Assembly (NCBI GenBank): GCA_001275005.1
Contig: JWZX01003073.1
Span: 1 to 64,000, forward strand
DNA: 64,000 nt
Source of the DNA: Chrysochromulina tobinii
Lineage: Eukaryota
Direction of reading: 5' to 3'
The position numbers were made by a program, and so were the translations under genes. This document shows positions 1 to 62,608 of the stretch, piece after piece. Under the pieces are notes generated by a model. That model had not been told where the DNA came from. It saw nothing but the letters and a program-made list of their open reading frames with translations, and did not search any database. How positions within the stretch are numbered: the first letter of the stretch is position 1; every line of letters begins with the position of its first letter.

Positions 1-164
1 GCACTGTGATTCCCCTCTGATGGCCACTCATTACCCTTGATTGCCCCCCTCATCAGGTGCTCGCTCAGGAGGCGAAGCTCGCACTGTGATTCCCCTCTGA
101 TGGCCACTCATTACCCTTGATTGCCCCCCTCATCAGGTGCTCGCTCAGGAGGCGAAGCTCGCAC
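1..164 (+). repeat. 80-bp tandem duplication comprising an intron cassette plus the first 28 bp of the exon
   Basis: 1-84 is identical to 81-164; unit = gtgctcgctcaggaggcgaagctcgcac + tgtgattcccctctgatggccactcattacccttgattgcccccctcatcag. Confidence 0.95.
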
Positions 165-775: not shown

Positions 776-1226
776 GTTGGTTGTCTGGTCTTGTTGAAGG
801 CAGAAGTGGGTCGAGAACAGGGCTCGACACGTGCCGTACGCTATGCCTTGATGTTGCCGATGTCCGCAGATCGCTTGGGAAATTTCAGAATTGCTGGCAC
901 AGACTGCCGTAGTGCCATTTTGTGGTGCTGGCCTCCTGGCCAGCGCAGCACACAGGTCCTCGCGAGAACAGGTAACAGAAACCGCGTTGCCCTTCTCGGC
1001 TCGACCGGAGTGTGGAAAAAAAGGCGGCACGCGGTTCTTTGTGGGTGTTTTTGTGAAAAGCAGCGCACCCCGACCCGTTCCTTTTACATGGACACTTCTG
1101 TGATACAATGTATGAGAGCTTGACTTGACTTGACATGACTTACGTGCGGTGAAGACTTCGTCAAGTCTTCGTCTTCCTCTACCGCGCGGCTGCTCCGACC
1201 AAGACCGTCAACCCGTACGGAAGCCT

Positions 1227-2370: not shown

Positions 2371-5300
2371 TCACTGGCGAGTCGCTGGCGAGTCGTCCGA
2401 GCCGCCTCCCTCGCCAAAAATCTCAAAGTAGTTGTCGATGATGGCGGCCATCGGCCCGTAGAAGGAGGGATCGTCCTGGATGCGTCGCAGGTAGACGTTG
2501 TCAGCGGTGGGCGCGGCGCCGCTAGAGATACGACGCACGTCAGGTGTGCTTCCAGCGCCTCCGGCGTAGATCGCATTTGCATCGGCCAGTGATTGGGTCG
2601 CCTTCTGCGCCTCGCGCATGAGCGTGCTCAGCAGCGAACCGGCCACCTTGTTGGTCACCATCGAGACGAGCGTCTGCGGCAGGCTGCCCGCTTTGAGGTC
2701 GACATGACTGACCCACCTGACCCTGCACGATGTTTTCGTGAGGGGGTGGATGAGAACCTTGATGCACTTGAACGACGCGAGCTTGATGCCCTCCGCGCTC
2801 GCTGGGACTTCCACAGGTGCCGCGTCCCCGAGCGACGCGCCGAGCAGCAAGATGGACTGGCGCTCTTGTAGAGAGTCGGAAATGGACCAGTGGATGAGAG
2901 CGCCGCGCTTCATCATGGGCGTCAGGTCGAACTGCACGTACGTGGTGCGCTCATACGGAGAGATATGCGTGAGCACCTCGGCGGCTCCGCAGAAGGGCAT
3001 CCATTTAGGCCAGAGCTCGGCTTCGTGTGCCACCGCCGATGCATGCAAAAGGGAGGCACCTGAGAGTTCGCCGTCGATGCGTACCCATAGGGACCCATCC
3101 TCGTCCGGTCGCCACTGAGTGCGAAGCCCGAGTGCCTCAGACGCAGGTCGCCAGCCCCCACTACCCAGCTCGTCCAGCTCGCGCAAGGCTATCTGCACCT
3201 CGGTCGTCGAGACCAGAATCATGTTGAGCATCGTGCGCATGTTCTTGAGCCACTCCTGCTCCGTTTCGTCACGAGGTGTGAGGCAAGCCTTTGTGACGAG
3301 CTTCTCGACGCCTCGAAGCACCTGCGACCGGCGCAGCAGAGGGGTACGATTAGAAAGGTGGGGTTGGGAAGGTGGTAGGGGAGACTATCCTCGGGGTGGG
3401 GCGGGAGCGCAAGTTCGCAGGGCGGGTACTTGGGGGATGAGGCGGGTAGAATGGGGGGGTGGGGCGGGTCATCCGGGGTTGGGGCGGGTATGGAGGGTCG
3501 GGGCGGGGTGGAGGGGGCAGGGGAAGCACCTGCCCACACGCGAGGATGCGGTTCGCGCGCAGGTGACGCGACATTTCCTTGAGACCGTCCTGCAGCGCCA
3601 CGCCATGCTCGGCGTACAGCGTCGCACTCTCGGCGAAGAGATCCTCTGAGAGCTCATCCAGCTGGGCAGCGTACCAATTGGCGGACTGTGGCTCGGCGTC
3701 GCGCCCGAGCGCGCTCACGTGGAGCTCCTGCTGCCGTGCGAGCTCTATCGCCTCGACGAGCTTGCGCTCAGCCATCTCGAGCTCCCGCTCCGTCGGGCCT
3801 ACCGGAGGGTCCTGCCCCTTAAGGGCGATCACGCCGCGGTAGGCCTCGATGGCGAGATGGTGATCTCCGAGCTTGAGCCGCAGATTGGCCGCGGACAGCG
3901 CCATCGAGATCTTTGGCTGCAACTTGATCGCAGCCTCGATGCACTCGCATGCCTTCTTGAACTTGCCCTCCTTGTTGAACTGCTTGGCACGATCGAAGAG
4001 CTCCTCGGCGCTCAGGCCCGTCAACATCTGGCCTTGCACGGCCAACTCGGAGGCCTGCATCGTCAGAGTGCGAGCGTTGTCGGCGGCGGAGGCGATGCCC
4101 TGGCGCAACCGTTTCATAGGTGCCCAGGCTCCACCCTCCTCCTCCACAACTCCACCCTCCTCCGCCACGTCCTCCTCCTCCCCCCCCTCCCTCCTCCCCC
4201 TCCTCCTCCTCCTCCTCCTCGCCATCGTCGTCCTCCTCGCCCTCTCCCCACTCCTCCTCTTCCTCCCCGCCGCCTGCCACAGCCTTCTTCGCGCCTTCGA
4301 CTAATGCAGGCATGCCGCCAGCAGCAGCAGCGGCAATGCCAGCAGCGCGGTCGCCCTTGCCGGTCGAACCTGGCGCCGCCTCCGCGCCCGCTGCCTCCTC
4401 GGCAACGGCCGCCGGCAGCGGCGAGGCAAGCTCGAAATAGTTCGTCCCTGACACTCGATCTGGTAGCTCGTCGCTCGTCAGGACGCCAGATGCGGCGGCG
4501 CTGGGGTCGGCGGCATTCGGTTCCAAGCTCGAGCGCGAGCGGAGAGCACTTGGCGGCTTCGGCAGTACGGGCAGGGTGCCGCCGGCGGCGCCACCGGGCG
4601 CCCCATCCAGGCTCGAGGCGGCAGCGGCGCTGGACGGCGGCGGCGGCAGCTGCTTATTGACCTTGAAAAAGACGAGGGGCTTCAGCTTTCGTTCTTGGGG
4701 AGGTGGGACTAGGCTGCCCACCGCGTGCGCGTCGGCCAGTAGCCCAGGCTCTCCCGCGACCAGCCACGACTCCATCGGCGCGACCGCCGACGCCGCGTGC
4801 CCCGCCGGATCCTCTATGCCGATGCCCTCTCGCTTGCCTGCGGTGCGCTCCGAGCCCTGATCAGCCGCCTCTTCGCTCCCAGCCACGCTCTCGTACCGGT
4901 AGAGCTGGAGCGGGCGCGCGATCACGTACGCGGCGAGGATCGAGCCCAGGACCGACGCGATTCCCGTGGCCACGCCGGCGGCGATCAGGCTTGACGACAC
5001 TGAGTGGCGAGGCAGTTGATTGATGAGGTTCGTGGCCGAGCCGGCCTGCACGAGCGCGACGATGAGCGCGAGCGGGCAGCCGAGGGACGAGAGTAGGTAG
5101 GCCAGGTTGAAGACCGTGCACAGGCCGTGCTGGCGCTGTACGCGCGCGAACGAGGCGGCGAATCCGAAGGCGTAGCCGGGGATGTAGAGCGCGAGCACGC
5201 TGCTGCTCATTGCCGTGAGCACGGCTGTGAGCACGGTCTGCGTGAAGCTGACGCTCTGCACGAGCCGCTGGATCTGTACCGCAAACCGGTAATTCTCGGC

Positions 5301-7523: not shown

Positions 7524-8055
7524 CGCGGTTCCTCTATCTGTGTTCCCCCCTCCCTCCCAGAATTATTTTTCTGCCACACAAAGGCGCGCGACCAGGTCGC
7601 AGTGCAAGTCAAGTCAAGTCAAGTCTTGCCGGGGTAGTCAAGTCATCTCCAGTCATCTCACCTGTCAAGCATTCGCTCCGAGCTGCGCGCGCGGTGAGTC
7701 CAGTCCGGTCGTTGAGTCGAGGGGATCGCCCCACGGTGTCGACGGGGTGTCTGCACCCGCGCCCACATCTCTGATGTCAACAGATGTGGTGTCGTACACG
7801 GAGTGACCCGCATCGATCGATGATGAAGAGCCAACGGTCCCATGCCAAGATCCCGCGCGCGTGAAACCACACTTCGGGTTCACAAATTGGATATACCAAT
7901 TACCCAATTGCAACGTACCATGATCGCTTGATCGCATGTCCGGTTACGCAAGCACGAATCACTTATGTCTTATGATATGGCTTGCGTGAATTTTTATTAC
8001 GGGTGTTCGAACGGATCCGGGATCCCGCGCAGAACCGCAGTGTACGAACTCATAG

Positions 8056-21216: not shown

Positions 21217-24169
21217 TCACAGCCAGGGCCCATCCTTGGCGCGACCCCAGTGCAGCTCCATGGCCTTGCGGCTGCGGAAAGCAGCCCAGTGGCGGAGCAT
21301 GGCTCGGTCCAGCGTGGCCGCGGAAAGAGGATCGACGTGCCCGCTCACCTGCGAGGTGGGTGGCGGCGGCATCCCGGTCGGCTGCCAGCGCGTCGCGAGC
21401 TCCTCGTAAAAGTTCGGCGGCGCCTCGAGCGGCTGCCGCCGGAAGCGAAGCCAGCCGTCCGCCGCCGCATCCTTCTCGCCTACCTGCCAGCGCAGCAGCG
21501 CCAGATTGAAATTGGGCGCCAATTCGGTGGGCGCGAGCCGCACGCACTGTAGGAGCTCCTCCTCCGCCTCGCCGAAGCGATCCATGCACGTGAGAAGGCA
21601 CGCGCGGTTGTTGCGCCGCCGAAGCTCGGTGCGACGCAAATCCGCGTCGGTTGCTGCCGAGGCCTTTGGCGGGGGCGCAGTCGGCGCGTGGGCGGCGGCC
21701 GGCGTGTGGGCGACCGCCGGCGCGTGGCTGGTGTCGAACCCGGTCGTCACACGCGCCGTCACACGCGGCGTCTCGAGCGCCGACTCGATGGCCGAGAGGG
21801 CCTGCGCGGGCTCAAACTCACACAGGAGCGCATCGGCGACGAGGTCGGAGAGAGCAGCCGAGTGCCGCACGCCGTAGATGTGCAGCAGCTCGAGCAGCGC
21901 GTGCGCTTGCCCATCGCAGAGCATCGCGAGAGCCAGCTGGCGCAGCAGCGCCGTCTCAGACACGCGCAGAAACGCGAGCAAGGGCGAGAGCGCGCGCGAC
22001 TGCTCGAGGACCGCGCGCAGCTCGCGCACGCACTCGGACCAGCCGCCGCATATGAGCCACGCGCGACCGTACAGGTAGCGCGCCGCCAGAGGCGTGAGCA
22101 CCCGCCGTGGCTCATGCAGCAGCAGCACAGCCGTCGGCGATCTTCCCACAGGCGACCTTCCCGAGGCGCTCCCCTCGGCGCTCGTGGATGCGCTCACCAC
22201 GGCGCTCAACGAGGCAGTAGCGGCACTCACGGCGACGCATGAGGCGGGCGGATCGCCACTGGCTCCCTCAAAGTCTGCCTCGCGCAGGAACTCTGCCACC
22301 CGTCGCGCCGCGTGACGCTGTGCGGCGGAGGCCGCCGTGTGCGCGGCCGCGCTGTCATAGTGTGCGAGTAGGTTGTACAGAAGCCACGCGCCGACAGCAC
22401 CTGTGGGGAGAGAGGAGAGGGCGCCGTGGTAAGCACTTGCATGCACCGACGGAGGTTGTACAGAAGCCACGCGCCGACCGCACCGTCCGAGCCCCCAAGA
22501 CTGATCGCGCGCTGCAGCGCCTCGAGCGCTTCCATCGGCTCGCCGCAGCTCGCGTGCACCACGGCGCACGTGGTTGCATGCACAGGGTCTTCGACGAGCG
22601 CTCGCGACGGCGCGTCCAGCAGCGCGGCGCGTGCATCGGCTGCACGTCCGAGAAGCAGCAGCAGCGCCGATCGCGCGCGGTCGCACTGGCAAGCGAGCAC
22701 GAAGTCGTTGGCGGCGGTGGCGGTGCTGGCGGCGATGGCGGCGACGGCAGCAGCGCCGCCGATTGAAGCAGCGGGCTCGATGGCGGGGATGGCGGCGGCG
22801 GCGGCGGCGGCGGCGGCAGCGGCGGAATGGGAATGAAGGGCGACGCGACCGATGCAGTGAGCATGCACGTACACGGCCCACGCCAGTGCCTTCATCCTCT
22901 CGTCCACGCGAGGCACGTTGGGTGCAGCGGGTAGATCCACAGTCAGAGCTACCGGTACAAGCACTGCGTCGTCAGCTCGAGTCCTCGCAGCATCCGTCAC
23001 CGCACCAGGCAAGCACGCGCCGCTCAGGCACAGCGCTCGGCACAACGCGTCGATGCCCGCGCTCGGCCCCCCGCCTGCGAGGACGAGCAGGGCGGCCGTG
23101 CCCCCGCAGATCCACAGCGTCGGCTGCCAGCTGTTGAGGCCCTCGCGCCGTCTCGGGCGCTTGGAGGAGCGCACGGCGGCGGGCGGAGGATGGGCCACCA
23201 CCGACGGCAGCCCCGCGACGGTCCGTGCGCGCTTGGCTGGAGGCGGGAACACCGTCTCTGTAACCACCGTCCCTGGCTCCGGCGCGAGGAGAAGCACTTC
23301 GTCGACATCCTCCTCGACGTCCTCGTCAACATCGACGTCATCGTGGCTCTCATCCTCCAGACGAGTGGCGCCGTGCCCGTGGCCGCTGGCACCGGACGCT
23401 TCCCTTCGGTCTGGGTGCATGCACTGGTTGCATGCATCGTTGGCACCGGACGCTTCCCATCGCTCTGCGGCGCGGCCGAGCTCGGCAAGGGTGCGCGCAA
23501 TCTCGTCTGGGAGAGATTGCGAGCCCCCGAGCGCGGCCGGTGGCGGCGACGACGTTGCTGTGCCCGCCTCGGCACCCAGCTCGGCGAGCGCGCATCGAAG
23601 CGCCGCGAGCAGCGTCTGCAACGCTTCAGTCGGGTCGTGAAGGGTCCGTGTGGACGACGAGGAGGTTGAGAGGCTTCCCGCAACTCCGACCGCCAGCCGG
23701 AGCAGCGCAACGGCGGGCGGTTGGTCTTTCGACGATGGTGGGGCGGCGGCGGAGGCCGAGCCCATGGTGGTGGCGCGATGGCGACAGAAGTCACGGAGCT
23801 GCCGTAGAAGCGAGCGGCGCGAGGAGGCAAGGCTTTCGGCCGTCGCGGTTCCGCATCGCACCGATCCGAGCAGCGCTGCGTGGCCAAAGTAGATCTCGCG
23901 CCACTGCACGAGCCTGGCCCTCGCGCCACGAGGCAAGTTGCGCACGCTTTCGAGGCCGAGGCGCGCATGCCGAACAACCTCGTCCCAGCGGCCCAGGGCG
24001 GCATACGCCTCGCACGCATGGGCGTGCACGGCGACGGCGAGGCGCACTGCCGCTGGCGTGCCAACCTCGGGAAGCGCGAGCTTGTGGCTGAGTGCTGGGT
24101 CGGGCGGCAGGAGCAGGAGTGGCGAGTCGCTCGGCGGCGGCGGCGGAGGCGGCGGCTGCGGCTGCTGCG

Positions 24170-24243
<74 letters not shown>

Positions 24244-24332
24244 ACAGCGATGACCAGGCGTGCGAGGGTCAGGTGGTGGCCCAGGGCGGCATGGTGGCGA
24301 AGGGACGAGACAATGTGACGCTCTTCGGCCAT
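21217..24332 (-). CDS. Helical/TPR-repeat protein with N-terminal polyQ-polyP; intron 22401-22483
   Basis: ORFs 22227-24332 and 21217-22881 join in frame via a GT..AG intron (GSD|GAVGAWLLYNLLAHY). TPR-like NNRACLLTCMDRFGEAEEELLQCVRLAP..PNFNLALL. Confidence 0.75.
24171..24242 (-). repeat. (CAG)n tract encoding 24 Gln, followed by polyPro
   Basis: ctg repeats on + strand with one ttg interruption. Confidence 0.95.
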
Positions 24333-24643
24333 CGAGTCGGGAGGGCTCTCGGCGCTCGCTCCGCTCGGCGCCGCCCCACGGGAGACAAGTCAAGTCAAGA
24401 CAAGCAAATCCCAAACGCGACGGTCGTAAGCGTGAATGTGAATAGCGGGACACACAGAACGCACTCGACTCTCTGGCGGAGGGGATCAGGCAAAAAACGC
24501 CGTCATGAGTGGACCAGTGCATGTTTCGGCTTCCGCAACGGGACGTTCAACAAATCGTCCCCCAGGAGTCATGACGTCTACAAGTAGGGCATTGACCGCC
24601 CCCGAGGCCCCGATGCCCGTTCACGTCTCGTTTCGAGACCTCC

Positions 24644-29263: not shown

Positions 29264-29585
29264 GGCCGATTTCCCTCGAGTGCCCGCCGGGATTCGCTCA
29301 GCGGCTCGCCTCGCCACCGCACGAGGGCCTCAACGCTCACGCGAGGAGAGCGGTGTGCCCACGTGTGTAGCGCGCGCGCGCATGCCGCCACCACGCCGAG
29401 CACCACTTTTATGTACAGGCAAGTGAACATCATTGGTCCGCGCCACTGATGATGCTCTCTGGTGTTCACACAGCTTCACAGATCACACGCTTACTGTGTT
29501 GATCGTGTCGTAGACGTAGTGTACCGGTGTAACTTACTGACTGACGGACCAGCAATCGCCCCAATTATCGTTTGTTGTTTGGTTC

Positions 29586-29615
29586 TTGACTTGACTTGAC
29601 TTGACCTGACATGAC
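29586..29615 (+). promoter_or_regulatory. (TTGAC)n pentamer array ~55 bp upstream of ATG (longest example of a recurrent motif)
   Basis: ttgac x4 + ctgac + atgac. Similar sense-strand arrays at 1120, 7605(-), 24386(-), 35319, 36317 and 62543/62578. Confidence 0.65.
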
Positions 29616-29668
29616 TTGTGAATGAAGGTGAAGTCGAAGAACTGTCACAAGCCAGGAGGCATCTCGTA

Positions 29669-30936
29669 ATGCGTCGCTCCTCCCTCCTCGTAGCGCTGCT
29701 GCCACTGGCGGCGGACGCCTTCCTCGCGACCGCGCCGCTCAGGCGATCGCTCACGGTTCAGCACAAAGTCGGCACTCCGCCGGTCGTGTCGCTGAGCTCT
29801 CCTCGCACCACGACTTTGACTATGGGCGTTGCTCAGTTTGTCGCGGCGCCACTCGCATTAGCCAATCGCGGCATGCTCGGTATGCGCGCGTCACTATCTG
29901 CCCAGATAGCTGCATGTGTCGGAGCTGCGGCTATCGTCGGCATCTCACTCATTCGACTCGCGCTGCCTCCACTGCTCGTTGCGCAGGAGCCGTCTGCGCC
30001 GTGGTTGCCCTGGCCTTTGCGTGGCTCGCGCGCGTGCTCAACACGCCCTCACGCGTGTACGACAAGGAGGCGAACTCGGTCGGCCGAGAGTACGACGCTT
30101 GGACCTCCGAGGGCATCCTCGAGTATTATTGGGGCGAGCACATTCACCTGGGCTACTACGGCGAGAAGGAGCGCAAGGGTCCGTTTTACGGCGGCAAGGA
30201 CTTTATCGAGGCCAAGTACGACTTCATCGACAAGATGCTCGAGTTCTCGCAGGCGCAGGCGCCCCTGAAGGTGCTCGACGTGGGCTGCGGAATCGGCGGC
30301 ACCAGCCGGTACATTGCCAAAAAGTTTCCGAAGGCGACGGTCACCGGCATCACCATCTCGCCTGAGCAGCAACGGCGCGCGACGGCGCTGGCCGCAGAGC
30401 GGGGCGTGAGCAACGCGAAGTTCGAGGTGTGCGACGCGCTGGACATGACGTACGAGGACAACACCTTCGACCTCGTCTGGGCGTGTGAGTCCGGCGAGCA
30501 CATGCCCGATAAGGTCAAGTACGTAGAGGAGATGGCCCGCGTGCTCAAGCCTGGCGGTCGAATCGTCATCGCCACGTGGTGCCAGCGCGAGGAGGGCGAT
30601 AAGCCGTTCACGCCCAAGGAGCGCGATACGCTCGACTACCTGTACGGCGAGTGGACACATCCGTACTTCATCTCGATCGAGGAGTACGGGCGCATCATGC
30701 AACGCACCGGCAAGCTGCAGAAGATCGTGACGGCCGACTGGGCCACTGAGACGATCCCGGCATGGCGTCACTCGGTCTGGGTCGGGGTGTGGGACCCGTG
30801 GCCGGTCATTCGTCGGCCGAAGCTGTGGTGGAAGGTCATCCGCGACGCGTGGTGCCTCGAGATCATGCACCGCGCCTTCACCAACGGCCTGATGCAGTAC
30901 GGCATGATGACTGCCACCAAGCCGGCCACCAATTGA
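29669..30936 (+). CDS. Cyanobacterial-type MPBQ/MSBQ (tocopherol/plastoquinone pathway) methyltransferase with bipartite plastid-targeting leader; intron 29880-29986
   Basis: Signal peptide MRRSSLLVALLPLAADA-F; YDAWTSEGILEYYWGEHIHLGYY, VLDVGCGIGG, FDLVWACESGEHMPDK, RVLKPGGRIVIATWCQR. GT..AG intron joins the two ORFs in frame. Confidence 0.88.
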
Positions 30937-33913: not shown

Positions 33914-34667
33914 ATGCAGCTTGCTACGGTCACGACATTACTACTTTCGGGGGGGGCATCTGCTTTCACGCTCAGCGCAGCTCCTGTCCTCCAGCAGCAG
34001 CTTGGTCACAGCGATCGATCATACCTACGCGCGGAGTTGCCTGCGATGCAAGGGAACTTTGAAGGGTTCAGCCTCGACACGCTGAAGCGCTCCTTTGAGA
34101 GGATGATCGACCTTAGGGTAGCCCGTCGCCTCGCACATCCTCGTACAAGGGCTTTGATGAGACAACACTGAGGCAGATGGAGCTAGTGGAAGGAGGATAT
34201 TGCCAACAGTCCTGAAAAATTCGCTGCGCGAGCGAAGCAGAGCTCCGTGTGCCCCTCGCGGCTGAAGAGCGGCGATCTCGGCTTTTTCACGCGCGGCAAA
34301 AGTATCGCACCGCCTCGGACCATCTCACACTGCTCAGCACGCGCCCTCTGCTGACCCTTTGTTGCACGAGTGTCTCCGCAGTGGTGAAAGAGTTCGACAA
34401 CGTCGTGTTCACGGCGGAGCCTGGCATGGTGCATGGACCCGTACGGACTGACGTGCGCTCTTCCGCCCGCCACGCTCGCCGCGATGACACCTCCCGATGA
34501 CACCTCCCGATGACACCTCCCGATGACACCTCCCGATGACACCTCCCGATGACACCTCTCGAGACCGCGAGTGGTGGCGTTGCAACCTGTGACAGTCTCC
34601 CCACTTGCGCCGTGAGCAGTTTGGATACCATCTCATCTTCATTCACTCGTGCCGCAAGCCCGAGTGA
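33914..34667 (+). CDS. Plastid-targeted parvulin (PpiC-type peptidyl-prolyl isomerase); introns 34302-34381 and 34453-34619; three apparent +1 insertions at ~34127-34184
   Basis: Leader MQLATVTTLLLSGGASA-F. Reconstructed ARASHILVK...FAARAKQSSVCPS..KSGDLGFFTRGK|MVKEFDNVVF...GPVRTD|FGYHLIFI. Not found intact in the ORF track. Confidence 0.8.
34482..34559 (+). repeat. Intronic 13-bp minisatellite (cgatgacacctcc) x6
   Basis: Five perfect units plus one with a terminal mismatch, inside parvulin intron 2. Confidence 0.95.
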
Positions 34668-35520
34668 TGCGGCCTTCTGCCTGCAAGGGCCGACTGCATG
34701 CGCTGCCCCCAACTGGCGATACTATAGGTTTCGTCACGGTAGATGAGAATCTGCGGGGTGCGTGAAGGGCGCGCCTTCTCTCCGGTGTGGATCAGCGCGT
34801 GGTCGCTAGGCTCGCGCACGGTTGACTCGCGGAGCACTGGCACATCTTCCTCCATGAGATCGCGCGAGATCGATGGCGTGATAGCGCGTTCCGGACCCCA
34901 CATGGCATGCGGTGTGCACATGTCGACATGTGAGCAATTCATGATATAAGGATCTGAGGAGCGCAATGCAGAACCCACCGATACTGACCGTTACCGGTAC
35001 CCGTCGACCGCACGACCGTGCCGGCAGGATCAGTCCTCCACTCGGCATTGCGATTTTTGGCTATTTGCGAGAACCGTGTCGTGGACTGTAACACTGTAAC
35101 TGGCGAAAACGTTTGGCGTTTGCGGCGCGCGGAACCGGCAAACAAACGGCAAACACGCGGAATGCCGCCCGCGCGCTCCCGTCCCGCTTGCGGCTTGCCG
35201 CTCGGGGCGCGTGTGGTGTTCCGTGACTGTTCCGGAGTTGCGCGCAGCGAGGCATGTTCCGACTCAAGTCAGGTATATTCATAAATAACAGACAGACCAT
35301 ACGGAAGCCTTTCGAATGTTGACTGGACTTGACTTGACTTGACTCTCTTGGGAACGGTTTTATTCACGGGAGTGCACTCTCGCAAAGCGCAAAGGCGACT
35401 CTCCGACTTGTCCGTGTCTGGCCGAGAGGGCCCACGAACGGTACCCGAGGGCCGACATCCTTCCCTGTTACTGGGTCTCTGGGCCTGCATCCAGATCGCA
35501 AGGCGGCGCCCCTTTTGCAC

Positions 35521-38560: not shown

Positions 38561-41380
38561 TCAGCCTCCCCCTCCTCCGTGCTTGGCCTCCTCATAGGGC
38601 ACATTGGGGAAGACGCTCCGCTCGGTAGGCGCGCGGCACCCGTCATGAGCGCCGTCCTGTGGGGAGTGGGGAGGGGGGAGGGGGTGCGCCGTGGTGAGCG
38701 CGCCGTCCTGAGCACACCCCGCCTCGGGCCCATCCTGTAGACGCGCCGTATCGGGCACAGGTACGGGCGCGCCCCCCTCGGACAAGCCCGGAGACAGCGG
38801 CGCCGCTCCGGGTGGCAGTACGAGGAGCTGGCGGTCGTCACGCCCAGCGCTCTGCGAGAGCAGTCGAACGACGACCACGCCGCGCTGCGTGAGCATCTCC
38901 ACCATCTTCTGCTCAACACCACGCTCGTTGATCAGGATGGCATGCACGCCGTGCGTCGTGAGCAGGGCCGCCAGCACATCGGCTGTGGGCTCGTCGGTGC
39001 AATGGACGAGCACATTTGAGATAAGGCAGACCTCGAGTCCATCGCACGCTGCGTCCGCGTGCGCGCTCGCCGCGAGCACCGCCACTCCCGCGTGCGCGTC
39101 CCACTGCGCGAACGAATACGTCGCCGATGAGCTGGGACCGCGCAGCGCCTTCACGTACGGCTCCCACGAAGGCTGCAAGTCAAGGCTCACCAGGTGTAGT
39201 GCGGGCAGCTGCGGCATCGTACGCGCCGAAGCGGGCGCGGCGCGAGCCTCGGCGGACGTGAAGTGGTTACGGGAGGCGGTTACGCCAGCCTCGGCGGCCG
39301 CTGCGGGAGGCGGCGGGGGCGCTGGCGGCAAGGAAGTGGTTACGGTGGCGAAGGCGCCCTCTGGTGCGCGTGGGGGCCCGGTCTCCATGGCAGCCATTGC
39401 AGCCGTGGCGGCATCAATCAGTTGACTCATTTCCGGGTAATTCATGAGTTTCTTGGCACGGGCGGCGGAGATCCACACGTAGTCTGCGATCTCTCCAGCT
39501 TCAATGGTGATCTGTGCCCCTGAAACGTACTCGGCTAAGAAATAGACGCTCGTCTTGTTGCTCTTGCGCTTGCTGTCCCAATAAGACGTGCGAAAAATGG
39601 GTGTCGGTTGGGCACTGTTGTTCAAGAACGTGTAGCCCGTCAGCTCCTCCAGAGAAGTCTCTTCCATCGTCTCTCGCTTTGCTCCGTCGAGCTCATTTTC
39701 TCCATAGTTCAACCTGCCTTTCGGTGGTGTCCACCCCATACCGCCGGTTCTCGACTGAACCAAGAGGAATTCTGCTTGATGGTCTGGCTCACATCGTCGA
39801 AAGATCACGATGCCAGCAGCAGCATCGCGGCGGCGAAGGTCAGCGGCAGCGGGCTCAGCGGCGAGGGTGTTCGTGAGGCGCGACTGCATCCGTTCCTTTG
39901 CGCGGGTGAGCGCGCTGTCGACCGCGCCCGCGTTGCCGAATTGGGGGTTCATGCGCTCGCGAGCGAGGTTGGCTACGGCGTCCTCGGCTCCTGCCGACCC
40001 AGTGACGAAACTCGACCCAGTGACGAAACTCGACCCAGTGACGAAACTCGACCCAGTGACGAAGCTCGACCCAGAGACGAAACTCGATCCGAGCAGCCAC
40101 GCCGCTTGCTCGTCAGTCGTGCCGCGCCCAACGGCTGCCCAAAACTGGAGAAACCATTCGAAGGCGAGCAGCTCATAGCCCGGACCGCCGCCGAGGGCAG
40201 CGACGCGCAGACGCGCCGGGGGCGCAGCCCCATCGCCTGCGGCCCCAACGCCCGCGGCAGCCCCGGCCCCAACGCCCGCGGCAGCCCCGGCCCCAACGCC
40301 CGCGGCAGCCCCGGCCCCAACGCCCGTGGCAGCCCCGGCCCCAACGCCCGTGGCAGCCCCGGCCCCAACGCCCGTGGCAGCCCCGGCCCCAACGCCCGTG
40401 GCAGCGCCGCCAGCGGCACCGGCACCGGCACCGGCACCGCCGGGACGCGTCAGGTAGCGATCCAAGACGCCGCAGCGCGCGGCGCGCTCGTACAGGGCCC
40501 ACGACTCGGTGAAGCGCTGGAGGGACTTGAGGCGCAGGTAGATGGCCTGAAGGCCTGGGTGTGCGTACTCATCATCAGACCAAGTCCCTTTGCCCCTCGA
40601 GGACTTCATGGTGGGTTTGTCCACATAGAGCGCCTCGCCGTGCCGGATCATGGCCTCCACGTCGCCGGTCGCCTCGATGCGCTCTCGGCTGAGCTGGTTG
40701 ACGCGCACGTTGGTGGCGAGCAGGCCGCGCAGCAGCGGCAGCGCCTCAGGGCCAGCGGTGAAAGGGTACTTGCGACCCTCATCCTGGAAATAGCGCACGC
40801 TCCCGTCCGCGAGCTCGTACACCATGCCATCCTCGTCGACGCGCACGCCGCCGTCCACGTCCTCGCCCTCGTGCAGCGCGGCCTGCATCTCGCGTCCGAT
40901 GGAGCCGAAGCGAGACGGCGCGCCCTTGGGACGGCGCGAGGAGCCTCCACCGCCACCCCCACTGCGCTCGTCGAAGCGACCACCGCCACCCGCACTGCGC
41001 TCGTCGAAGCGACCACCGCCACCGCCGCCTTCGAAACGGCTGCCGCCTCCACCATCAACTCGCCCTTTGCCGCTCGAGAAGCGCCCGCCACCTCCTCCGC
41101 GCTCTTCGAGGCGCTCGCCTCTTCCGCCGTCGGGTCGTCCACCGCCACCAAAGCGATCCCCGCCACCACCGCCATGGACGCGGCCTTCTCCAGCGCCGCC
41201 ATCGAAGCGCCCTCCGCCACTCCTGCCCTGCTCATCTGGTCGTGCAAAGCGGCGGCAGCCCTCGCCTCGATTGGAGTCCCCCCGATTAGAGAAGCGGGCA
41301 CTCGCTGGAGCATCATCTCCGTGGGGTGTGCCACCGCCGCCCGCAGGCCGGTTGCGCAGGTGTGGAGGTACATACGCCAT
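38561..41380 (-). CDS. RGG-rich protein with SAM-methyltransferase-like fold interrupted by an Ap4A-hydrolase-type NUDIX domain
   Basis: N-terminal MAYVPPHLRN + RGG/RFD repeats; motif I LRVAALGGGPGYEL; Nudix box WTPPKGRLNYGENELDGAKRETMEET; then LVSLDLQPSW, FAQWD, CLISNVLVHC, AILINERG. Confidence 0.75.
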   Translation of the reverse strand: MAYVPPHLRNRPAGGGGTPHGDDAPASARFSNRGDSNRGEGCRRFARPDEQGRSGGGRFDGGAGEGRVHGGGGGDRFGGGGRPDGGRGERLEERGGGGGRFSSGKGRVDGGGGSRFEGGGGGGRFDERSAGGGGRFDERSGGGGGGSSRRPKGAPSRFGSIGREMQAALHEGEDVDGGVRVDEDGMVYELADGSVRYFQDEGRKYPFTAGPEALPLLRGLLATNVRVNQLSRERIEATGDVEAMIRHGEALYVDKPTMKSSRGKGTWSDDEYAHPGLQAIYLRLKSLQRFTESWALYERAARCGVLDRYLTRPGGAGAGAGAAGGAATGVGAGAATGVGAGAATGVGAGAATGVGAGAAAGVGAGAAAGVGAGAAAGVGAAGDGAAPPARLRVAALGGGPGYELLAFEWFLQFWAAVGRGTTDEQAAWLLGSSFVSGSSFVTGSSFVTGSSFVTGSSFVTGSAGAEDAVANLARERMNPQFGNAGAVDSALTRAKERMQSRLTNTLAAEPAAADLRRRDAAAGIVIFRRCEPDHQAEFLLVQSRTGGMGWTPPKGRLNYGENELDGAKRETMEETSLEELTGYTFLNNSAQPTPIFRTSYWDSKRKSNKTSVYFLAEYVSGAQITIEAGEIADYVWISAARAKKLMNYPEMSQLIDAATAAMAAMETGPPRAPEGAFATVTTSLPPAPPPPPAAAAEAGVTASRNHFTSAEARAAPASARTMPQLPALHLVSLDLQPSWEPYVKALRGPSSSATYSFAQWDAHAGVAVLAASAHADAACDGLEVCLISNVLVHCTDEPTADVLAALLTTHGVHAILINERGVEQKMVEMLTQRGVVVVRLLSQSAGRDDRQLLVLPPGAAPLSPGLSEGGAPVPVPDTARLQDGPEAGCAQDGALTTAHPLPPPHSPQDGAHDGCRAPTERSVFPNVPYEEAKHGGGGG
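39995..40402 (-). repeat. Coding minisatellites: 18-bp (GSSFVT) x5 and 24-bp (GVGAGAAT/A) x6-7
   Basis: gacccagtgacgaaactc units at ~39996-40090; gccccaacgcccg(c/t)ggcagccccg units at ~40242-40402. Confidence 0.95.
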
Positions 41381-41618: not shown

Positions 41619-42738
41619 TCACCTCTGGCTCTTCCTTTCCTTCGGATCGGACTTGAACAGCGAGACGAACTCCTCAAAGGTAATCTTGCCGTTGCCGTCG
41701 GTGTCGGCGAGGTTGAAGAGCTGCTGGATGGTCTCTGGCGTAACGTCCGCCGGCACGACCCTGAGCTTCGTCATCATCACGCGCAGCTCTTGCTGGTCGA
41801 TCGTGCCGTTGCCGTCCTGGTCGAAGACGTTGAACGCGCGCTTGAGCGCCATCTCCGAATGGCCGTAGATCGGACCGACCGCGGCGCAGAACTCCTCAAA
41901 GGTGATATTGCCCGTGTTGAGCACGTCGGCTGCCTTGAAGACCAGCTCCGCCTGCCCCTCGGGCGCCCCCAGTGAGCGCATCACCTTACGCAGCTCCTCG
42001 AGCTCGATGGTGCCGCTGCCGTCGAGATCGAACCTGATGAAGGAGGCAATCAGAGGCCATCAGAGGCCATCAGAGGTCATCAGAGGTCATCAGAGGTTCT
42101 CCGCCGTCGAGATCGAACGTTTGAAAGGCGGCCTTGAGCTCTTCGAGCGCGCCCGGCGGCAGCGAGGGCTTGTGCAGCTTCTGCGTGTTGCCGCGCATGA
42201 CCCCGGTCACCGGCGTTCGGCCGACCAGGGACGCGGCGCGGATAGCCGCGCGCCACGTGCGTCGCATGTCGTTGAAAACGCGCAGCTGGGCAGTGGTCGA
42301 GTCGGGGAGTGGGGCCGGCGAGGCGCTGTGCCCGAGCACCCAAGGGGAGGCAAGCAGGTCGGCCACGCGCGCACGCTTGGTCGGGTCGGGGGCAAGCAGC
42401 GAGAGGATGATCGACTTGGCATCGGACGACACGGGCTTCCAAGCCGGATCCTCGAAGCTCCACGCGCCGCGCTGCACCCGGCGGGCGACTTCCTCGTCAG
42501 GGGTCGCTCCTTGAGGATCGAACGGGTGGTAGCCGCCGAGCAGGATGAATAGAATCACGCCGAGGGCCCACAGGTCCACTGCCTCATCGTAGGCCTTCCC
42601 GGCGAGCATCTCGGGCGCCATGTATGCGATCGTCCCCGTGCGGCCAACCATATCGGGCATGCCCTCGCCGAAGAACTGAGCGAGCCCAAAGTCGCAGAGC
42701 TTGATGTCCGAGTGCTGGGATTTGTCGACGAGCAGCAG

Positions 42739-47888: not shown

Positions 47889-48127
47889 AGGCCCAACGGC
47901 CGAAGGCCCATGTTCATGGAGTCAGAGAATTCCTGGAACTCGCACACATAGGATTCCTTGAGTCAGAACCGGGAGTTTGGAGGTTTTGAGATGACAGCGT
48001 CCGCAAGTACCGGTAGTCCCGATTGGGAAAGTTCTTGGGACGCTCGGCAAACCTGCACGCGGTCGAAGCGCGCGCTTTCTGTCGCGGTCTTGTCCGCGAT
48101 CTTCGGGTCGTGACGATCCAGGAGCGA

Positions 48128-51100
48128 ATGTTCACACAGCGCGCTGGAAGCTTTGAACGTGCATCCCGGCGCAAGTCGGAACATGCGGCAGCCGACAAAA
48201 TCGCCAAACATATCTGCACTGCGGAAACAAACCACAGGGAGAGATGCGGAGCCGACCTCGAGAAGCGAGATGAGCTCACCCTTATCGTTCAGCAAGCAAC
48301 GGGGGATGCGCACGCCGCCATCCTGGCTCCGATCGCCCCGCAGCTCGAAGTGTTAGCGCTCATCGAGGGCCTTCTTGATGACGCCGCGGGGTCGCGTGTG
48401 AGGAACCCCGATTCAGTACTTTGGAATAGCATCGACCAGCGGCTCAGCGTAGCCGGCCTGAAGGCCGGTAGGGCCAGTGCTGGCCGATGCGGCTCACCCC
48501 TTCACGCATTGAGCGCTGCTCTTGGACCCGACGGCGATCTGTCAACTTCTTTCGCGCATCGAGAGCTTGCACGCCGAATCGCCGACAAGCTTGACTCGGT
48601 GGTGCAGGAGGGGCCCCAACGCATAGGAGACGTGAATATTCTCAACCTCGTCACTTGGGGTCGGTTGCCCGACGCCGTCGTTGACGACAGCGAGATCGAG
48701 CCCAAGAAATGGCAGGCGCTCTCCGCATATATCCGCGACGATGAAGACCTTGACCAAGTTGGGGCGGACTGGCTCATCTTGGCGCTCGCATGCCTCGTGC
48801 TCGGCCGCAAAATCCTCGTGTACAGCGATTGTTTCAACGTTGCCGTTCGCTTCACACCCGAAGATACTGATGGGGCTCGCTTTGTGCCCGCCGCACAGCT
48901 TCCACCAAGCTCTCAGTGGATCCGATTGACCATGCTCAACGGCCAGTTCTACACTCCCTTGGAGGCGGTCCCCACTCGCGCTGATGGGCTGCTGGCTAAG
49001 CTTGACGAGATGGCCTCGCTCATGGACGTGCAGCTCAAGAGCCAAGCCGCAGGGCTGCCGGCTGTGATGCTCCTCGGCCTAACTGGTGTTGGCAAGAGCA
49101 CGATGATGCACATCCTCTCCGGCAATCAGATGTATGCATGCATCTGCCCCACCAGCGTCTTGCCACTGCGGTTACCATGATGCTGACGCCCGCAATGCGA
49201 TGATGCACATGCAGGTATCTGTTTGACAACGGCACCAACAAGTACGTCAGCGTGAAGGACGAGCAGATTCAAGGCTCGAAGATCGGACTCACAACCAACT
49301 CAGAGACTAAGATGGCGAACGCAATCCGGATCCAGGTACCGTTTTCGGATCCGACGTGGCTCCTTATTGACACGCCAGGCTTTGGAGACACAGAGGGTCC
49401 AATGGACAACATTGTCAGCGCTGTGTCGATAGCCAAGGTGCTGCACGCTCGCCTGAAAACACTGCCAGCCTGTCCAGTCGTTAGTCCAGTCGCCAACCGC
49501 CGGTGTACTCACAGCCGCTTGTCCCTTCGACGCAGGTCACGTGCATGTGCTCCTCCCTTCGAGTCATTATGCTCATCAACCAGAGCGACATTGTGAACGC
49601 GAGGATGACCGCATTTGTCGACCTGGGTAAGACGATCTCGAAATTGTTTTCCGACTTCGAGACAGCGTCTAAATCACTCACGATCTGGGTGCCCAAGAAG
49701 TACACGGATAATGAGGTCGACGAAAAGCGCCTCACGAAAATGCTCGCCAGGGCTCACAAAGACAAGACGAACGAGGAGGCTCAGAGATTGCTCGGGTTGC
49801 TGCTACAGCAGCTCGATGTTGAGCCTCTTCGCGTCGTCAAGTATTCAGAAGAGGGCGGCGGATCGGATGACGACAGCGACTCCGATGCCGAGATGGTCGA
49901 GAAGCCCAACCCGGGCTCCGCCTCTGACGTCACGAGCCCCGCGAGCGGCGCGTCGCCGCCGCCAAAGCGTGCGCGGACCGACGACGAGGAAGATCTGAGT
50001 GGCGAAGAGGAGATCACGATGAAGAAGGTCACGTTCGACGTCAGTAAGCTCCTGCGCCAGCTCGACCACATGAAAGCGCTCGATCGGCCTTCGGAGCAGG
50101 TCTTGCTTCCCCTCTCGAGCGAGTCGCAAGAGCATCTGCGAGAGGTGGCACGTGAGGTGCGAGACCGCTGCGAAGCTGCTGTTGAGCTGCCTGACTTTGA
50201 GACGATTGCCAAGGGATTTGAGTTGCTCTCTCGCATCATCGAGCGACTGCGGGAGGCGGAGCCCGGTGCGACCGACCCACGTCGCGCGACAATGGTCAGA
50301 GACGTCAAGGAGGCGACGAAGATCGTCATCGCGCAATATGTGCTAGCGAAAGACAAAGTCAAGGCGCGCATCGAGGAGCAGTTGAAGCTGCGCATGGAAC
50401 GCCTCGGCAATGCACTGAGTGAGACGAACTTGAGCAGCCAACTGGATCAAGAGGCGCTTCACGCCTTTTCGTGGGCTCGCCGCTGCCTCGGAGCCGCTAA
50501 ACAGATCGAAACGTACGTCGAGAGCCTTCCAACGGAAGAGTCGCTTCAGTTACGCCTTGAACTTCTGCTCAGTGGGCTATGCGATCAAACGATCAAGCTC
50601 GAGGTATCGGACCCAGCCTTCAAGGTGACCCTCATTAAGCTTGGTCAAGTGTGCTCGTACTTCCAGACCGATGCGACTGACAGCATCTTTGCTGCTGTCG
50701 GAAAAGAAGCGGGAGAGTGGCGGCTGACTGTGCTCAAGGCTCTCATCGAAAAGATGGCGTCGCTAAAAGAGGATGTGAGCAACATCATTAGCCTTGGCTA
50801 CCGGGACGTCGAGGCCGCAATAGCTCGTTCCATCGCGCAGCACGACGACAGTTTCCCGAGGTCTGCGTTCGTCGCCGAGGAGGCGGACAATGCGGCCGCT
50901 TTTCACTTTGATCAGGCGGGAGAAAAGCTTCGAATCATGCGGGAGGCGCAGCAGCGCCTCAGCCCATTGGCGCCGGAGCTCACTGGCGTGCTCGAGAGCA
51001 CCTGCGAATGCATTCTTGCACGGCTCGATGCCTACCTTCAATGCGTGATCCAAGCGGCCGCCGGTGCCACCGTACAGCTCTCGACTCCGCAGCTCATTGA

Positions 51101-57100: not shown

Positions 57101-57914
57101 TCTGCACTCGTACCAGCGACGCCATGACTCCAAACAGCTCTGCGAGCTGCTCAAGAGCTACAACCGCATCGCGAGTTCGACGACGAGCCGCACGCTCATT
57201 TTGATCGACGTGACCTGTTCGATAGACTCGTTGATCGAGAAAACCAAGGCGTGCATCGGCGAGTTCTTCGATCGCTGCCAGAAGGTCTTGGATGAGGAGG
57301 GTATCGTCTCAGGCTTCGAGCTACAGCTTGCTGGGTTCTCAAACTACAACGTTCGAATGGAGGAAATCCTCGAGGCATCTACGTGGGAGCTGAAGCCGCA
57401 CAATTTATCGCTGTTCCTGAATTCGCTCCACGTTCGCGGCGGTTGGGGTGAGGAGGCGATCGAAGTCGGCTTGATGCATGCTCTGTCAGAGCACCAAAAG
57501 CGTCCCATCGACCAGATTATCATCATCGGTGACGCTCCTGCCAATTCACTCTCTGATATTGATCTTAAGCGTGGTGGCGACGGGAAATCCTACGGCCGTG
57601 ACTACTGGGACGCGCAGAGGCCTCCCTGGGCTCCATCTGGGATCCCCAAGAGAGATGCGGCTGGGATGCTGCAAGAGATCCAAGCTGTGAAACCAGTGCC
57701 TCTTCACTGCTACTGGATGGCCGGCAGAGCCAAAGATAGCTTCAATGCGATCGCAGCGTTGACTGGCGGTGGTACTTCGCAGAAGCTTGACGTCAACTCA
57801 AAAGAGGGCGCACAGCTGCTGACCGATGCTGTTTGCAAGCAGATCCTAACGTCGCTCGGAGGGGCGGCGCTCGCGGACGCCTACGAGCGGATGAAACCGT
57901 CTTTTAGCCGCTAG
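48128..57914 (+). CDS. ~3200 aa protein: degenerate OTU-like domain, P-loop GTPase, long helical region, SecA-like SF2 helicase/ATPase, C-terminal vWA; introns 49132-49214 and 49438-49535
   Basis: Exons of 1004+223+8379 nt join in frame. G1 LLGLTGVGKST, G3 LIDTPGFGDT; SecA-like LAEVPTGEGKS, LLIDEVD, GVTGTL, LATRVFGRGVDF, GGLHVL, QIMGRSGRQGEKGS; vWA ILIDVTCSI, GGWGEEAIEVGL, IIIIGDAPAN. Start codon uncertain. Confidence 0.85.
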
Positions 57915-62439: not shown

Positions 62440-62608
62440 CAGGATACATTGGCGAAGTGGCGTACACAGTATCCGAAAGTACGAGTGTAGCGGGGGCGTA
62501 TGAGATGGACATACATAAACAACAGTCAACCCTGCGGAAGACTTGACTTGACTTCCCCGCGGGTTTGGACCTGTGTTTTGACTTGACTTGGCTTGTGAAA
62601 ATCGATCG

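Follow-up and report, generated by a model that had tools for sequence, protein, structure and literature searches.

The origin of new spliceosomal introns is a long-standing open question, and bursts of intron gain are currently credited to transposons. Introners with terminal inverted repeats (TIRs), described in 2022 (bioRxiv 10.1101/2022.06.06.494994; PMC9860276), likewise take their donor from a duplicated target and their acceptor from the insert and leave the mRNA unchanged. They have a 4-bp target site duplication (TSD), TIRs and similarity reaching to near both ends, whereas the introns studied here show a duplication of 10-50 bp that forms their whole 5' half, no TIRs and inserts of variable length. 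Neither the TIRs nor the short, fixed TSD of MITE/TIR introners (Micromonas, Aureococcus, Symbiodinium type) were found; of the features of introners in the broad sense, we observed shared sequence in unrelated genes and orthologous empty sites, and no similarity near both boundaries.

Among haptophytes, the introners of Chrysochromulina sp. (TARA MAG; PMC9860276, Fig. 2C) lack TIRs as do ours, but they have a 4-bp TSD, carry the 5' site and co-opt the 3' site. The parts of a 2025 survey drawn on here (Gozashti et al. 2025, PMC12130899) include Pavlovales fam1, also without TIRs, and Emiliania huxleyi fam24 (5 copies), which has '10bp terminal direct repeats' and no TIRs, co-opts the 5' site and carries the 3' site; they list 0 introner families for C. 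tobinii. The comparison with these haptophyte families was by description, not by sequence, and our introns may overlap with them. The 2022 pipeline demands similarity near both intron ends (PMC9860276) and would thus likely miss introns of the present type, for which our literature search found no published description.

In Daphnia pulex, introns gained where double strands break in a staggered manner (Li et al. 2014, PMC4202315) have repeats of 4-12 bp and inserts mostly of unknown source, whereas here the repeats measure 10-50 bp and the inserts can be recognised as tails taken from other introns. As here, the introner-like elements of fungi (Collemare et al. 2013, PMC3609843) derive from other introns by copying, in some cases inside one gene. 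They are near-identical whole-intron duplicates with stable folds, ascomycete families lacking TSDs, and these hallmarks are not shared by our half-introns with a long duplication; four of five folded introns and cassettes from the window were no more stable than shuffles. The tandem genomic duplication (AGGT) model (PMC3443670) derives a scar-free intron from an exonic duplication at a proto-splice site, and one of our loci (L012) does have AG|GT inside the repeat; mostly, however, acceptor and branch point come here from a foreign intron tail and not from the duplicate. Finally, Replitron-1 and Replitron-N1 of Chlamydomonas (Craig 2023, PMC10288648) resemble our introns in their variable TSD, target and orientation specificity and capture of parent flanks; they are 910-3,600 bp long and possess terminal direct repeats and a Rep transposase, and the passages of that paper covered here do not mention intron formation. 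A study of ciliate introns (PMC13685798) proved not relevant.

The focal intron and other loci in the window

The window, a 64,000-nucleotide stretch of a contig of the freshwater haptophyte C. tobinii, contains the features listed in Table 1. A preliminary description had reported an 83-bp intron that begins with a 31-bp copy of the next exon. This proved exact: the intron (22483-22401, minus strand) is 83 nt long with GT..AG ends, and 30 of its first 31 nt are identical to 22400-22370. The copies differ solely at position +5 of the intron, where the intron has G and the exon T, a synonymous change (Ala). Removal of the intron leaves a single open frame of 1,029 codons, counted stop to stop; unspliced, the frame runs into a stop 85 codons past the donor. 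Splicing is predicted from these sequence features, and the absence of a bridging RNA contig in four RNA runs of patchy, low cover is no evidence against it. By the yUnAy consensus, the motif at 22433-22429 is the likely branch point. The filler was likely carried over from a donor intron by way of a 3-nt microhomology. A longer shared extension upstream of the focal core corresponds to an RNA-contig loose end at 22455, and the intron's fold is unremarkable against shuffles (z = -0.07).

Two proteins called on other assemblies, P0001 and P0124, enter the same intron, which is thus no one-off misassembly, and in P0003 and P0137 translation runs directly across the focal junction. The P0001 allele retains a perfect copy (VRSARGF in the read-through frame; VLSARGF in the window and P0124). 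At the empty donor-like site of the host gene, a protein from another assembly (P0140) shows family-B cassette read-through immediately before the codons of the site.

Table 1. Positions of the focal intron, its parts and the further loci in the window
Feature	Position	Strand	Remarks
Host gene frame, 1,029 codons spliced	21217..24389	-	no Pfam match
Empty donor-like site CAG|GTAGGC, same host gene	21478..21486	-	
Copy 2, start of next exon	22370..22400	-	+5 T departs from copy 1
Polypyrimidine tract and CAG acceptor, brought by insert	22401..22420	-	
Family-B core, 24 nt	22421..22444	-	contains predicted branch-point motif 22433-22429
Filler, 8 nt	22445..22452	-	with last 3 nt of copy 1 an 11-nt string, also 5' of core in unrelated locus L091
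Copy 1 of duplicated target, intron 5' part, 31 bp; provides GT donor	22453..22483	-	30/31 identity to 22400-22370
Family-A intron, 85 nt, calcium-dependent protein kinase gene	42034..42118	-	first 16 nt perfect copy of 42033-42018
Exact tandem, 80-bp unit (28-bp exon-start copy + family-A tail)	1..164	+	one unit = 57-136
Family-B-like insert, 51 nt, GA..AG ends, 11-nt flanking repeat	38657..38707	-	in frame with or without
208-nt intron, START-domain gene, neither family	3322..3529	-	7-bp repeat (11 with shared GCAG)

The same architecture had been proposed for four more loci, which fared unequally. The kinase intron at 42118-42034 is solid: its removal restores an EF-hand, and the relatives P0152/P0153, whose contigs reach 33 and 17 kb in length, show an uninterrupted site without an insert; an RNA contig piece stops at 42017 and then continues, which, with the read-through proteins, is an indirect hint of splicing. 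The copy at 57-136 is one unit of an exact tandem behind the same cassette's AG, and thus represents an acceptor that was duplicated again, not simply a new intron. The insert at 38707-38657 is ambiguous: it has GA..AG ends, keeps the frame with or without removal, and has an 8-bp repeat that resembles the cassette itself; its fold gave z = -2.55 against shuffles, and an X14 RNA contig piece stops at 38648 and then continues. The intron at 3529-3322 is credible as an intron, its 7-bp match making it a weak member. Matches of 7 nt are indeed near chance in the window (30, against 25 on average over 30 Markov shuffles), whereas matches of 12 nt number 7 versus 0.23, a count that includes coding tandem repeats. 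Neither cassette nor duplication is present in three introns of the window that have RNA support (29879-29985, 34302-34381, 31985-31683), which indicates that the system comprises a subset of introns. We detected no Rfam match in the window at the gathering threshold and no transposon-type Pfam family among 24 window ORFs.

Architecture and polymorphism across loci

The wider sample of 685 kb combined the window with 128 metagenome loci, anchored by pattern in a scan of 4 of 64 parts and drawn from several populations; it is skewed to intron-rich genes and possibly retains a few orthologous duplicates. Family-B acceptors number 196 in it and family-A acceptors 71. At the cassettes, the summed depth of contigs is very high, a value that is not a copy number. 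Searches of viral contigs gave 1 and 0 matches, the single one at the end of a phage-like contig, and a read-through peptide search for wider taxonomic spread matched solely the same gene.

An excess of introns that begin with a copy of the next exon is evident throughout. For the focal cassette, used as bait, these are 69 of 96 introns, against 0.35% when intron starts are compared with the exon starts of other introns; the architecture recurs in 55 of 99 family-B copies not used as bait and in 32 of 71 family-A introns (cross-pair nulls for the three counts 0.15-0.5%). Confirming an earlier claim, each of the two cassette types is common to unrelated genes. Families A and B are otherwise unrelated and share the same architecture, and A/B chimeric cassettes occur. 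The duplications are of variable length, as noted before, with a continuous distribution from 10 to 50 bp (median 28), no mod-3 bias and an anticorrelation with filler length (rho -0.54); 40 of 115 are perfect. The absence of TIRs, likewise noted before, extends to all 115 inserts, whose longest end match is at most 5 nt, and no constant terminal direct repeat is seen at insert ends. The 5' 23-50 nt of these introns are locus-specific, and similarity does not reach near both splice boundaries. The insert ends 3' with the acceptor CAG and has no poly(A) or simple-repeat tail, and shared family-B sequence begins sharply at GCATGC in 48 of 99 non-bait copies. The survey supports a genome-scale system of scar-free gain in which the insert supplies branch point and acceptor, as had been suggested.

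Gain had been expected wherever the target starts with GT. Targets are donor-like, and copies start with GT or GC in 115 of 126 cases, but the rule is too loose since the whole donor consensus is matched, including its exon side: G precedes GT in 93 of 115 targets (background 27%), CAG in 32 of 115 (2%), and the exon copy has G at +5 in 67 of 103 (29%). Selection improving the donor of the intron copy was considered and rejected, as mismatches between copies are as frequent at +3 to +6 (6.2%) as elsewhere (5.6%); G stands in the intron copy in four of five discordant +5 pairs, too few to claim a trend. An open-frame test of the coding strand was uninformative (77 of 112 sense, 77 of 112 antisense). 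Cassette pairs within 1.5 kb are co-oriented in 131 cases and not in 2. Iterated multi-unit inserts are present, as are mirror products in which the end of the previous exon is duplicated and the insert supplies the donor, the latter far fewer than the forward type.

Presence and absence at orthologous sites, a check proposed earlier, was observed directly. L076 is filled with 81 bp (33-bp perfect duplication, 6 bp and cassette) at a site where the target is single and clean in L011 and L041; the flanks are 96-97% identical, and filled and empty forms stem from different populations. L102 contains a 42-nt insert, absent in L049, that carries solely the last 10 nt of the cassette, and L023 has two tandem units where L051 has one. 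Proteins add further filled/empty contrasts (P0152/P0153, P0137, P0140). These contrasts suggest that the introns were gained recently, gain being the presumed direction at single sites. Precise loss via recombination between the repeats is another conceivable source of empty alleles.

Source of the inserts and competing explanations

In appearance, the inserts are 3' pieces of other introns, of varying length; the dedicated element supposed before is not supported. Two were traced to a neighbouring intron: the tail pasted into L065 comes from a parent 1.7 kb upstream, apparently in the same gene, and that in L048 from a parent 2.5 kb upstream, apparently in the upstream neighbouring gene. In both daughters the filler reproduces the last part of the exon duplication of the parent itself, and each shows 5 nt of microhomology. 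Both belong to the same-locus, same-strand ordered pairs, which make up just 283 of 24,734, and at least 6 nt of upstream sequence are shared by 15 of 246 within-locus versus 140 of 18,801 across-locus pairs, the pairs not being independent. Cassettes of one locus are overall not more similar to each other than to those of other loci (Mann-Whitney p = 0.19), which indicates that most donors are non-local or outside the sample.

New introns thus likely arise when repair-like copying pastes the tail of another intron after a duplicated stretch that resembles a splice site, without change to the protein. Between target-primed insertion and break repair, the evidence leans towards DNA template switching. 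The chances are about even, in our estimate, that a donor-like exon site is duplicated over 10-50 bp and joined to another intron's 3' end in one microhomology-guided template-switch event in DNA repair or replication; the enzymes, and a DNA rather than an RNA template, we infer. The end of a nascent or broken strand, located at a (CA)G|GTRNG-like site, would anneal to the matching acceptor/exon junction of an existing, often nearby intron. About 10-70 nt would be copied back through acceptor, pyrimidine tract and branch point, sometimes including the donor intron's own duplication, and the strand would return to a point in its own locus that lies 10-50 nt further downstream, via 3-5 nt of microhomology, whereby the target is duplicated. 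Copy 1 would provide the donor and the pasted tail branch point and acceptor, so that splicing would restore the mRNA exactly. Every product recreates the CAG|GT junction and is therefore predicted to be both new template and new target, in a self-feeding chain without fixed element ends, from which selection likely retains events whose donor is good and whose length is at least about 60 nt.

End joining yields templated insertions and non-tandem duplications, according to the part of a review considered here (PMC7407515), and the features expected of TMEJ- or MMBIR-like templated insertions, junction microhomology and nearby templates, are seen in the two traced pairs and the local enrichment, at small n. 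Against template switching count the low number of clear parent-daughter pairs and the non-independence of the tests, as well as the sharp GCATGC start, which could be a true element end. A step coupled to transcription or to the spliceosome accounts for the GT/GC starts and the co-orientation no less well than unguided repair does, and the preponderance of forward over mirror products is what a sense-RNA template would predict. A snap-back (hairpin) origin of the fillers, one signature of synthesis-dependent end joining, was rejected (stems of at least 4 nt in 5 of 46 versus 7.4%, no enrichment), which also counts against template switching. The more general reading, a transposon-free, self-propagating and still active genome-scale intron gain in which the 3' half of any intron is copied behind a duplicated cryptic donor and products serve as donors and targets, we hold tentatively, at slightly less than an even chance.

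A less probable, if serious, explanation is target-primed reverse transcription in trans, in which a LINE- or Penelope-like reverse transcriptase (RT) nicks a donor-like site and copies a 5'-truncated tail, with priming either at a pre-mRNA's CAG|GT junction or at the 3' end of an excised intron, second-strand cleavage producing the variable duplication. The fixed 3' end, a 5' extent that varies and goes down to 10 nt (L102), the 5' microhomology and the variable duplication amount to a non-LTR signature; LINEs and PLEs show variable-length TSDs and 5' truncation (PMC9977147, in the part consulted). Sense co-orientation and the upstream position of the parent in both traced pairs also agree with it, and the Pavlovales family is classed as non-LTR and 'co-opt 5' carry 3'' in the 2025 survey excerpt (PMC12130899). 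The apparent location of the L048 parent in a neighbouring gene, not the same transcript, argues against it, as do the mirror products, which require an antisense or DNA template, and the lack of a poly(A) or simple-repeat tail and of an Rfam match in the window that would mark a SINE-type RNA head. The autonomous RT/endonuclease partner proposed earlier was not seen, with no RT or GIY-YIG motif found by regex in 685 kb (about 1% of a genome; low power), and none of 73 fillers showed the intron-skipping duplication that would point to a spliced-RNA template, a test of low power too.

It is improbable that pre-existing introns were remodelled at unchanged positions, the start of the next exon overwriting the intron 5' end by tandem duplication over the existing acceptor and loss of the old 5' part, or by aborted cDNA-mediated intron loss. 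Tandem units of exon start and tail are common and polymorphic (window 1-164; L023 versus L051), 6 of 115 introns lie directly behind an earlier family acceptor, and full-length forms having a donor of their own exist (L009), but an older acceptor upstream is missing in 109 of 115. Remodelling is also at odds with the clean empty sites L011 and L041, the uninterrupted kinase site of P0152/P0153 on long contigs, the P0140 cassette at a site empty in the window, and daughters containing sequence of a non-adjacent parent.

A very short non-autonomous mobile element starting at GCATGC (Replitron-like rolling-circle or an unclassified introner), site-specific and with variable duplication, its fuzzy end derived from the parent copy's flank, appears quite unlikely. 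The sharp boundary and the Replitron-1 properties mentioned above favour it, and one Replitron-1 locus is reported in C. tobinii in the passages covered (PMC10288648). Two unrelated cassette families and their chimeras share one architecture, however, no constant terminal direct repeats and no terminal inverted repeats are seen, inserts shrink to 10 nt with highly variable tails, and Replitron-N1 measures about 910 bp according to the same passages. Assembly artefact or chance likeness of donor-like sequences is effectively refuted: although the assemblies are short-read, contigs break in repeats at cassettes and 7-8 bp matches are close to chance, the copies contain substitutions, the same structures reappear in separate assemblies and populations, and even true donors match other exons' starts over at least 10 nt in merely 0.02% of pairs.

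Source, target, both junctions and filled and empty alleles are all readable from sequence in a cultured alga group, and rival mechanisms are thus directly testable. If template switching is correct, captured bits of parental duplications would make the pedigree of new introns directly readable, and the flanking repeats would also permit precise loss, rendering gain and loss at one site reversible. Extrapolation from 2 clear new-site cases per 64 kb and from 55 non-bait family-B cases per 621 kb, a biased sample, suggests on the order of thousands of cases per 59-Mb genome. Intron read-through contaminates protein predictions in these algae. The alga is C. parva-like, with identity to a C. parva protein at 463 of 468 positions.

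The focal intron and the other loci of the window

The preliminary description had claimed an 83-bp intron whose start copies 31 bp of the next exon and whose splicing restores the frame, and we found it to be correct: the focal intron is 83 nt long, its first 31 nt match the start of the next exon at 30 of 31 positions, and its removal leaves a single open frame of 1,029 codons. Among proteins called on other assemblies, P0001 and P0124 enter this intron by read-through, and P0003 and P0137 (~91% identical) cross the predicted junction directly (SDGAVGAWLLYNLLAHYD); no RNA contig in the four RNA runs examined spans it. The P0001 allele has identical exon and intron copies, so the one mismatch seen in the window probably arose later, by a synonymous substitution in the exon. 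RNA contigs of ~2.4-2.5 kb in runs X15 and X18 carry the core of the focal cassette (family B) near one end (~50 nt) and would represent a retained intron or perhaps a longer element. Where this core begins, the TGCATGCA palindrome contains UGCAUG, the RBFOX splicing-enhancer motif, and some tails of the second cassette type (family A) likewise contain GCATGC.

Four further loci had been proposed to share this architecture. The family-A intron in the gene of a calcium-dependent protein kinase is solid, the second locus is a single unit within an exact tandem repeat (window 1-164), and the remaining two are weak. Among the matches listed, an RNA contig piece ends at 42017 and then continues; this end point falls short of the kinase intron acceptor by exactly the 16-nt ambiguity. 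Three RNA-supported introns of the window have neither cassette nor duplication. At the weak locus 38707-38657 the donor would be GA if the 51 nt are spliced, and an RNA contig of a diverged strain stops beside this insert at 38648 and then continues. Where insertion or duplication has taken place repeatedly at one junction, AG|GT units are stacked without an intervening exon; a 20-nt exon was found between two stacked introns of this type, and both arrangements could be recursively spliced.

Coordinates of features in the window and in metagenome loci
Feature	Sequence	Position	Strand
Focal intron (family B)	window	22483-22401	minus
Family-B core in X15 and X18 contigs	window	22412-22444	
TGCATGCA palindrome	window	22444-22437	
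Kinase intron (family A)	window	42118-42034	minus
Tandem unit	window	57-136	
Weak locus	window	38707-38657	minus
Weak locus	window	3529-3322	
Degenerate cassette cores	window	38476-38430	
Stacked AG|GT units	window	1-164	
Stacked AG|GT units	L049	90-367; 3429	minus
Stacked AG|GT units	L116	169-257	
Family-B cassette at contig end	L001	4495-4554	
Lower-GC block (58-59%)	window	49485-57911; 48017-49177	plus
Lower-GC block (58-59%)	window	58745-61312	minus
(CAAGT)n short arrays	window	1118-1149; 7605-7625; 24386; 29585-29618; 35319-35344; 62550-62597	

Frequency and anatomy of the duplication architecture

The family was sampled by scanning JGI/ENA metagenome contigs (4/64 parts) for a 21-nt family-B core, which yielded 128 distinct loci from several populations (621 kb including L001) and 157 core matches; 144 of these were unique, an acceptor could be recognised in 97, and 96 could be analysed. 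The excess of identity between intron start and exon start is present in these loci: anchored copies of the start of the following exon score at least 10 in 69/96 introns (at least 20 in 40), against 0.35% of 9,106 cross pairs. Variant family-B copies not used as bait show the duplication in 55/99 cases (null 0.5%), and so do 32/71 introns of the unrelated family A, defined by 10-mer repeats ending CATCAG (null 0.15%; some cases are tandem units). Another flanking repeat scoring at least 15 was found in 30 of 61 analysable leftovers (null 1.2%), including mirror cases in which the duplicated end of the previous exon provides the AG (L105, L109, L025, L049), repeats that contain AG|GT (L012), insertions without an acceptor, and tandem units. 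A tandem 47-nt core-containing unit occurs in L065 and L068 (both minus strand), with 53 nt common to both contigs.

Across 115 GT/GC cases, and allowing gaps, the duplication is 10-50 bp long (median 28; perfect in 40), bearing out the variable length claimed earlier, and the inserts carry no TIR longer than 5 nt, also as claimed. The filler between duplication and cassette core has a median of 6 nt and is anticorrelated in length with the duplication (rho -0.54). Intron length has a median of 80 and a minimum of 57, which would fit a minimum-length filter, and there is no mod-3 bias in lengths among the 115 cases. Target sites resemble a full donor: G precedes GT in 93/115 (background 27%), CAG in 32/115 (2%), and the exon copy has G at +5 in 67/103 (29%) and a purine at +3 in 91/103 (53%). 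Of neighbouring cassette pairs, 131 share one orientation and 2 do not. These introns are genuine, frequent in this species group and, it appears, recent.

Probable gain of the introns and source of the inserts

Filled and empty versions of orthologous sites exist. The 81-bp insert of L076 (33-bp perfect duplication, 6 nt and cassette) faces a clean, single-copy site in L011 and in L041, both from other assemblies, with flanks 96-97% identical; a 42-nt insert in L102, made up of a duplication and just the final 10 nt of the cassette, is missing from L049. In the focal gene, P0140 reads through a cassette immediately before VGEK, a point at which CAG|GTAGGC is uninterrupted in the window. At the kinase site P0151 and P0154, on contigs of up to 67 and 94 kb, run on into the intron, and P0152 and P0153, 94-95% identical and on contigs of up to 33 and 17 kb, continue through an intact EF-hand; the latter lineage likely has no intron here if, as P0151 implies, the gene caller does not model splicing. 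It is possible that precise loss by recombination between the repeats gave the empty version at any single site; gain is the simpler reading.

Fillers are often common to unrelated introns, and that of the focal intron, together with the 3 nt of duplication that precede it, recurs in the unrelated L091. In two pairs, at L065 and L048, the filler of a daughter intron reproduces the end of the exon duplication that belongs to its parent, and after it come the filler and core of that parent (19 and 12 nt shared; the L065 pair also shares a core variant); a 5-nt microhomology joins this filler to the daughter's duplication. The parents lie upstream on the same strand, at 1,698 bp (L065, whose daughter is a three-unit iterated insert) and 2,534 bp (L048); by gene limits drawn by eye, the former appears to share the daughter's gene and the latter to lie in the upstream neighbouring gene. 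Both pairs indicate the direction of copying, from parent to daughter. Same-locus, same-strand pairs make up 283/24,734 ordered pairs, and two more matches, of 13 and 9 nt, among those listed are cross-locus and ambiguous. Shared upstream sequence of at least 6 nt occurs in 15/246 within-locus and 140/18,801 across-locus pairs, which are non-independent; overall cassette similarity, also over non-independent pairs, does not differ within and across loci (p = 0.19).

The insert acts like a 3' piece of another intron, variable in length, fixed at the acceptor, joined by microhomology and flanked by a variable duplication, an outcome reachable by DNA template switching or by target-primed reverse transcription. 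We favour template switching during DNA repair or replication, at about an even chance, because one of the parents appears to lie in a neighbouring gene, there are mirror and iterated products, the same behaviour is seen in two unrelated families as well as in their chimeras, and the inserts have no tail; a 3' fragment of another intron would be copied and join the target by microhomology beside a variable duplication. Target-primed reverse transcription, to which the sense co-orientation of cassettes, the preponderance of forward over mirror types and the upstream parents (n=2) point, is rather unlikely. Remodelling of already existing introns explains cases that are tandem or stacked (6/115) but leaves the empty sites unexplained, and is improbable as the general source. 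Slightly less probable still is a Replitron-like element; Replitron-1 has variable TSDs and captures parent flank (PMC10288648, in excerpt), and the sharp GCATGC boundary would suit it but would also be expected if donors comprise their own duplication plus core. Snap-back synthesis was tested as the origin of the fillers and found unsupported. No enzyme for the process was identified by a regex search for RT and GIY-YIG over 685 kb or by Pfam on 24 window ORFs, which gave no transposon-type family. The boldest reading, a transposon-free, self-feeding intron gain with readable pedigrees, falls a little short of an even chance.

Known systems, organism and minor observations

These introns work like an introner, yet tests for TIRs, a fixed TSD and similarity at both ends find none of the three. 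Excerpts of Gozashti 2022 (PMC9860276) describe introners whose 5' site is co-opted from a 4-bp TSD, families in a marine Chrysochromulina MAG (of which the one illustrated has a 4-bp TSD and lacks a TIR) and a screen demanding similarity near both intron ends. In the accessible parts of Gozashti 2025 (PMC12130899), C. tobinii is entered with 0 introner families, a 5-copy E. huxleyi family is annotated '10bp terminal direct repeats' and non-LTR elements make up ~5% of classified families. On these descriptions the published families differ from the present introns, which may nevertheless have been described before. As excerpted, intron gains in Daphnia have repeats of 4-12 bp, compared with 10-50 bp here, and mostly unknown sources (PMC4202315), and same-gene duplications in fungi are near-identical whole introns (PMC3609843). 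The duplication-plus-intron-tail architecture is not described in the portions of the literature examined, including PMC3443670, PMC11282704, PMC7407515 and PMC9977147, a scope mostly outside subscription papers.

The spliced kinase of the window is identical at 463/468 positions to a protein labelled Chrysochromulina parva, and the GC content is ~63%, similar to that of the C. tobin genome (59 Mb, 63.4% GC; PMC4580454, in part). The sequencing runs that contain window DNA are metagenomes, from mixed culture and from fresh water. The predicted proteins P0001, P0124, P0140, P0143, P0151 and P0154 contain read-through peptides (CMQVLTTAPSPLSPQ-like or GEPLMTSDDL), which in these algae mark introns that were missed. 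The cassette on L001, a phage-like contig from a viral collection, is likely a chimeric contig end. The lower-GC block, possibly acquired DNA, holds an unbroken 2,809-codon ORF with SecA-DEAD/helicase-like matches, adjoined by a kinase-PARP fusion ORF. Several of the (CAAGT)n arrays lie close to gene starts or ends, and their summed depth is high in a DNA run.
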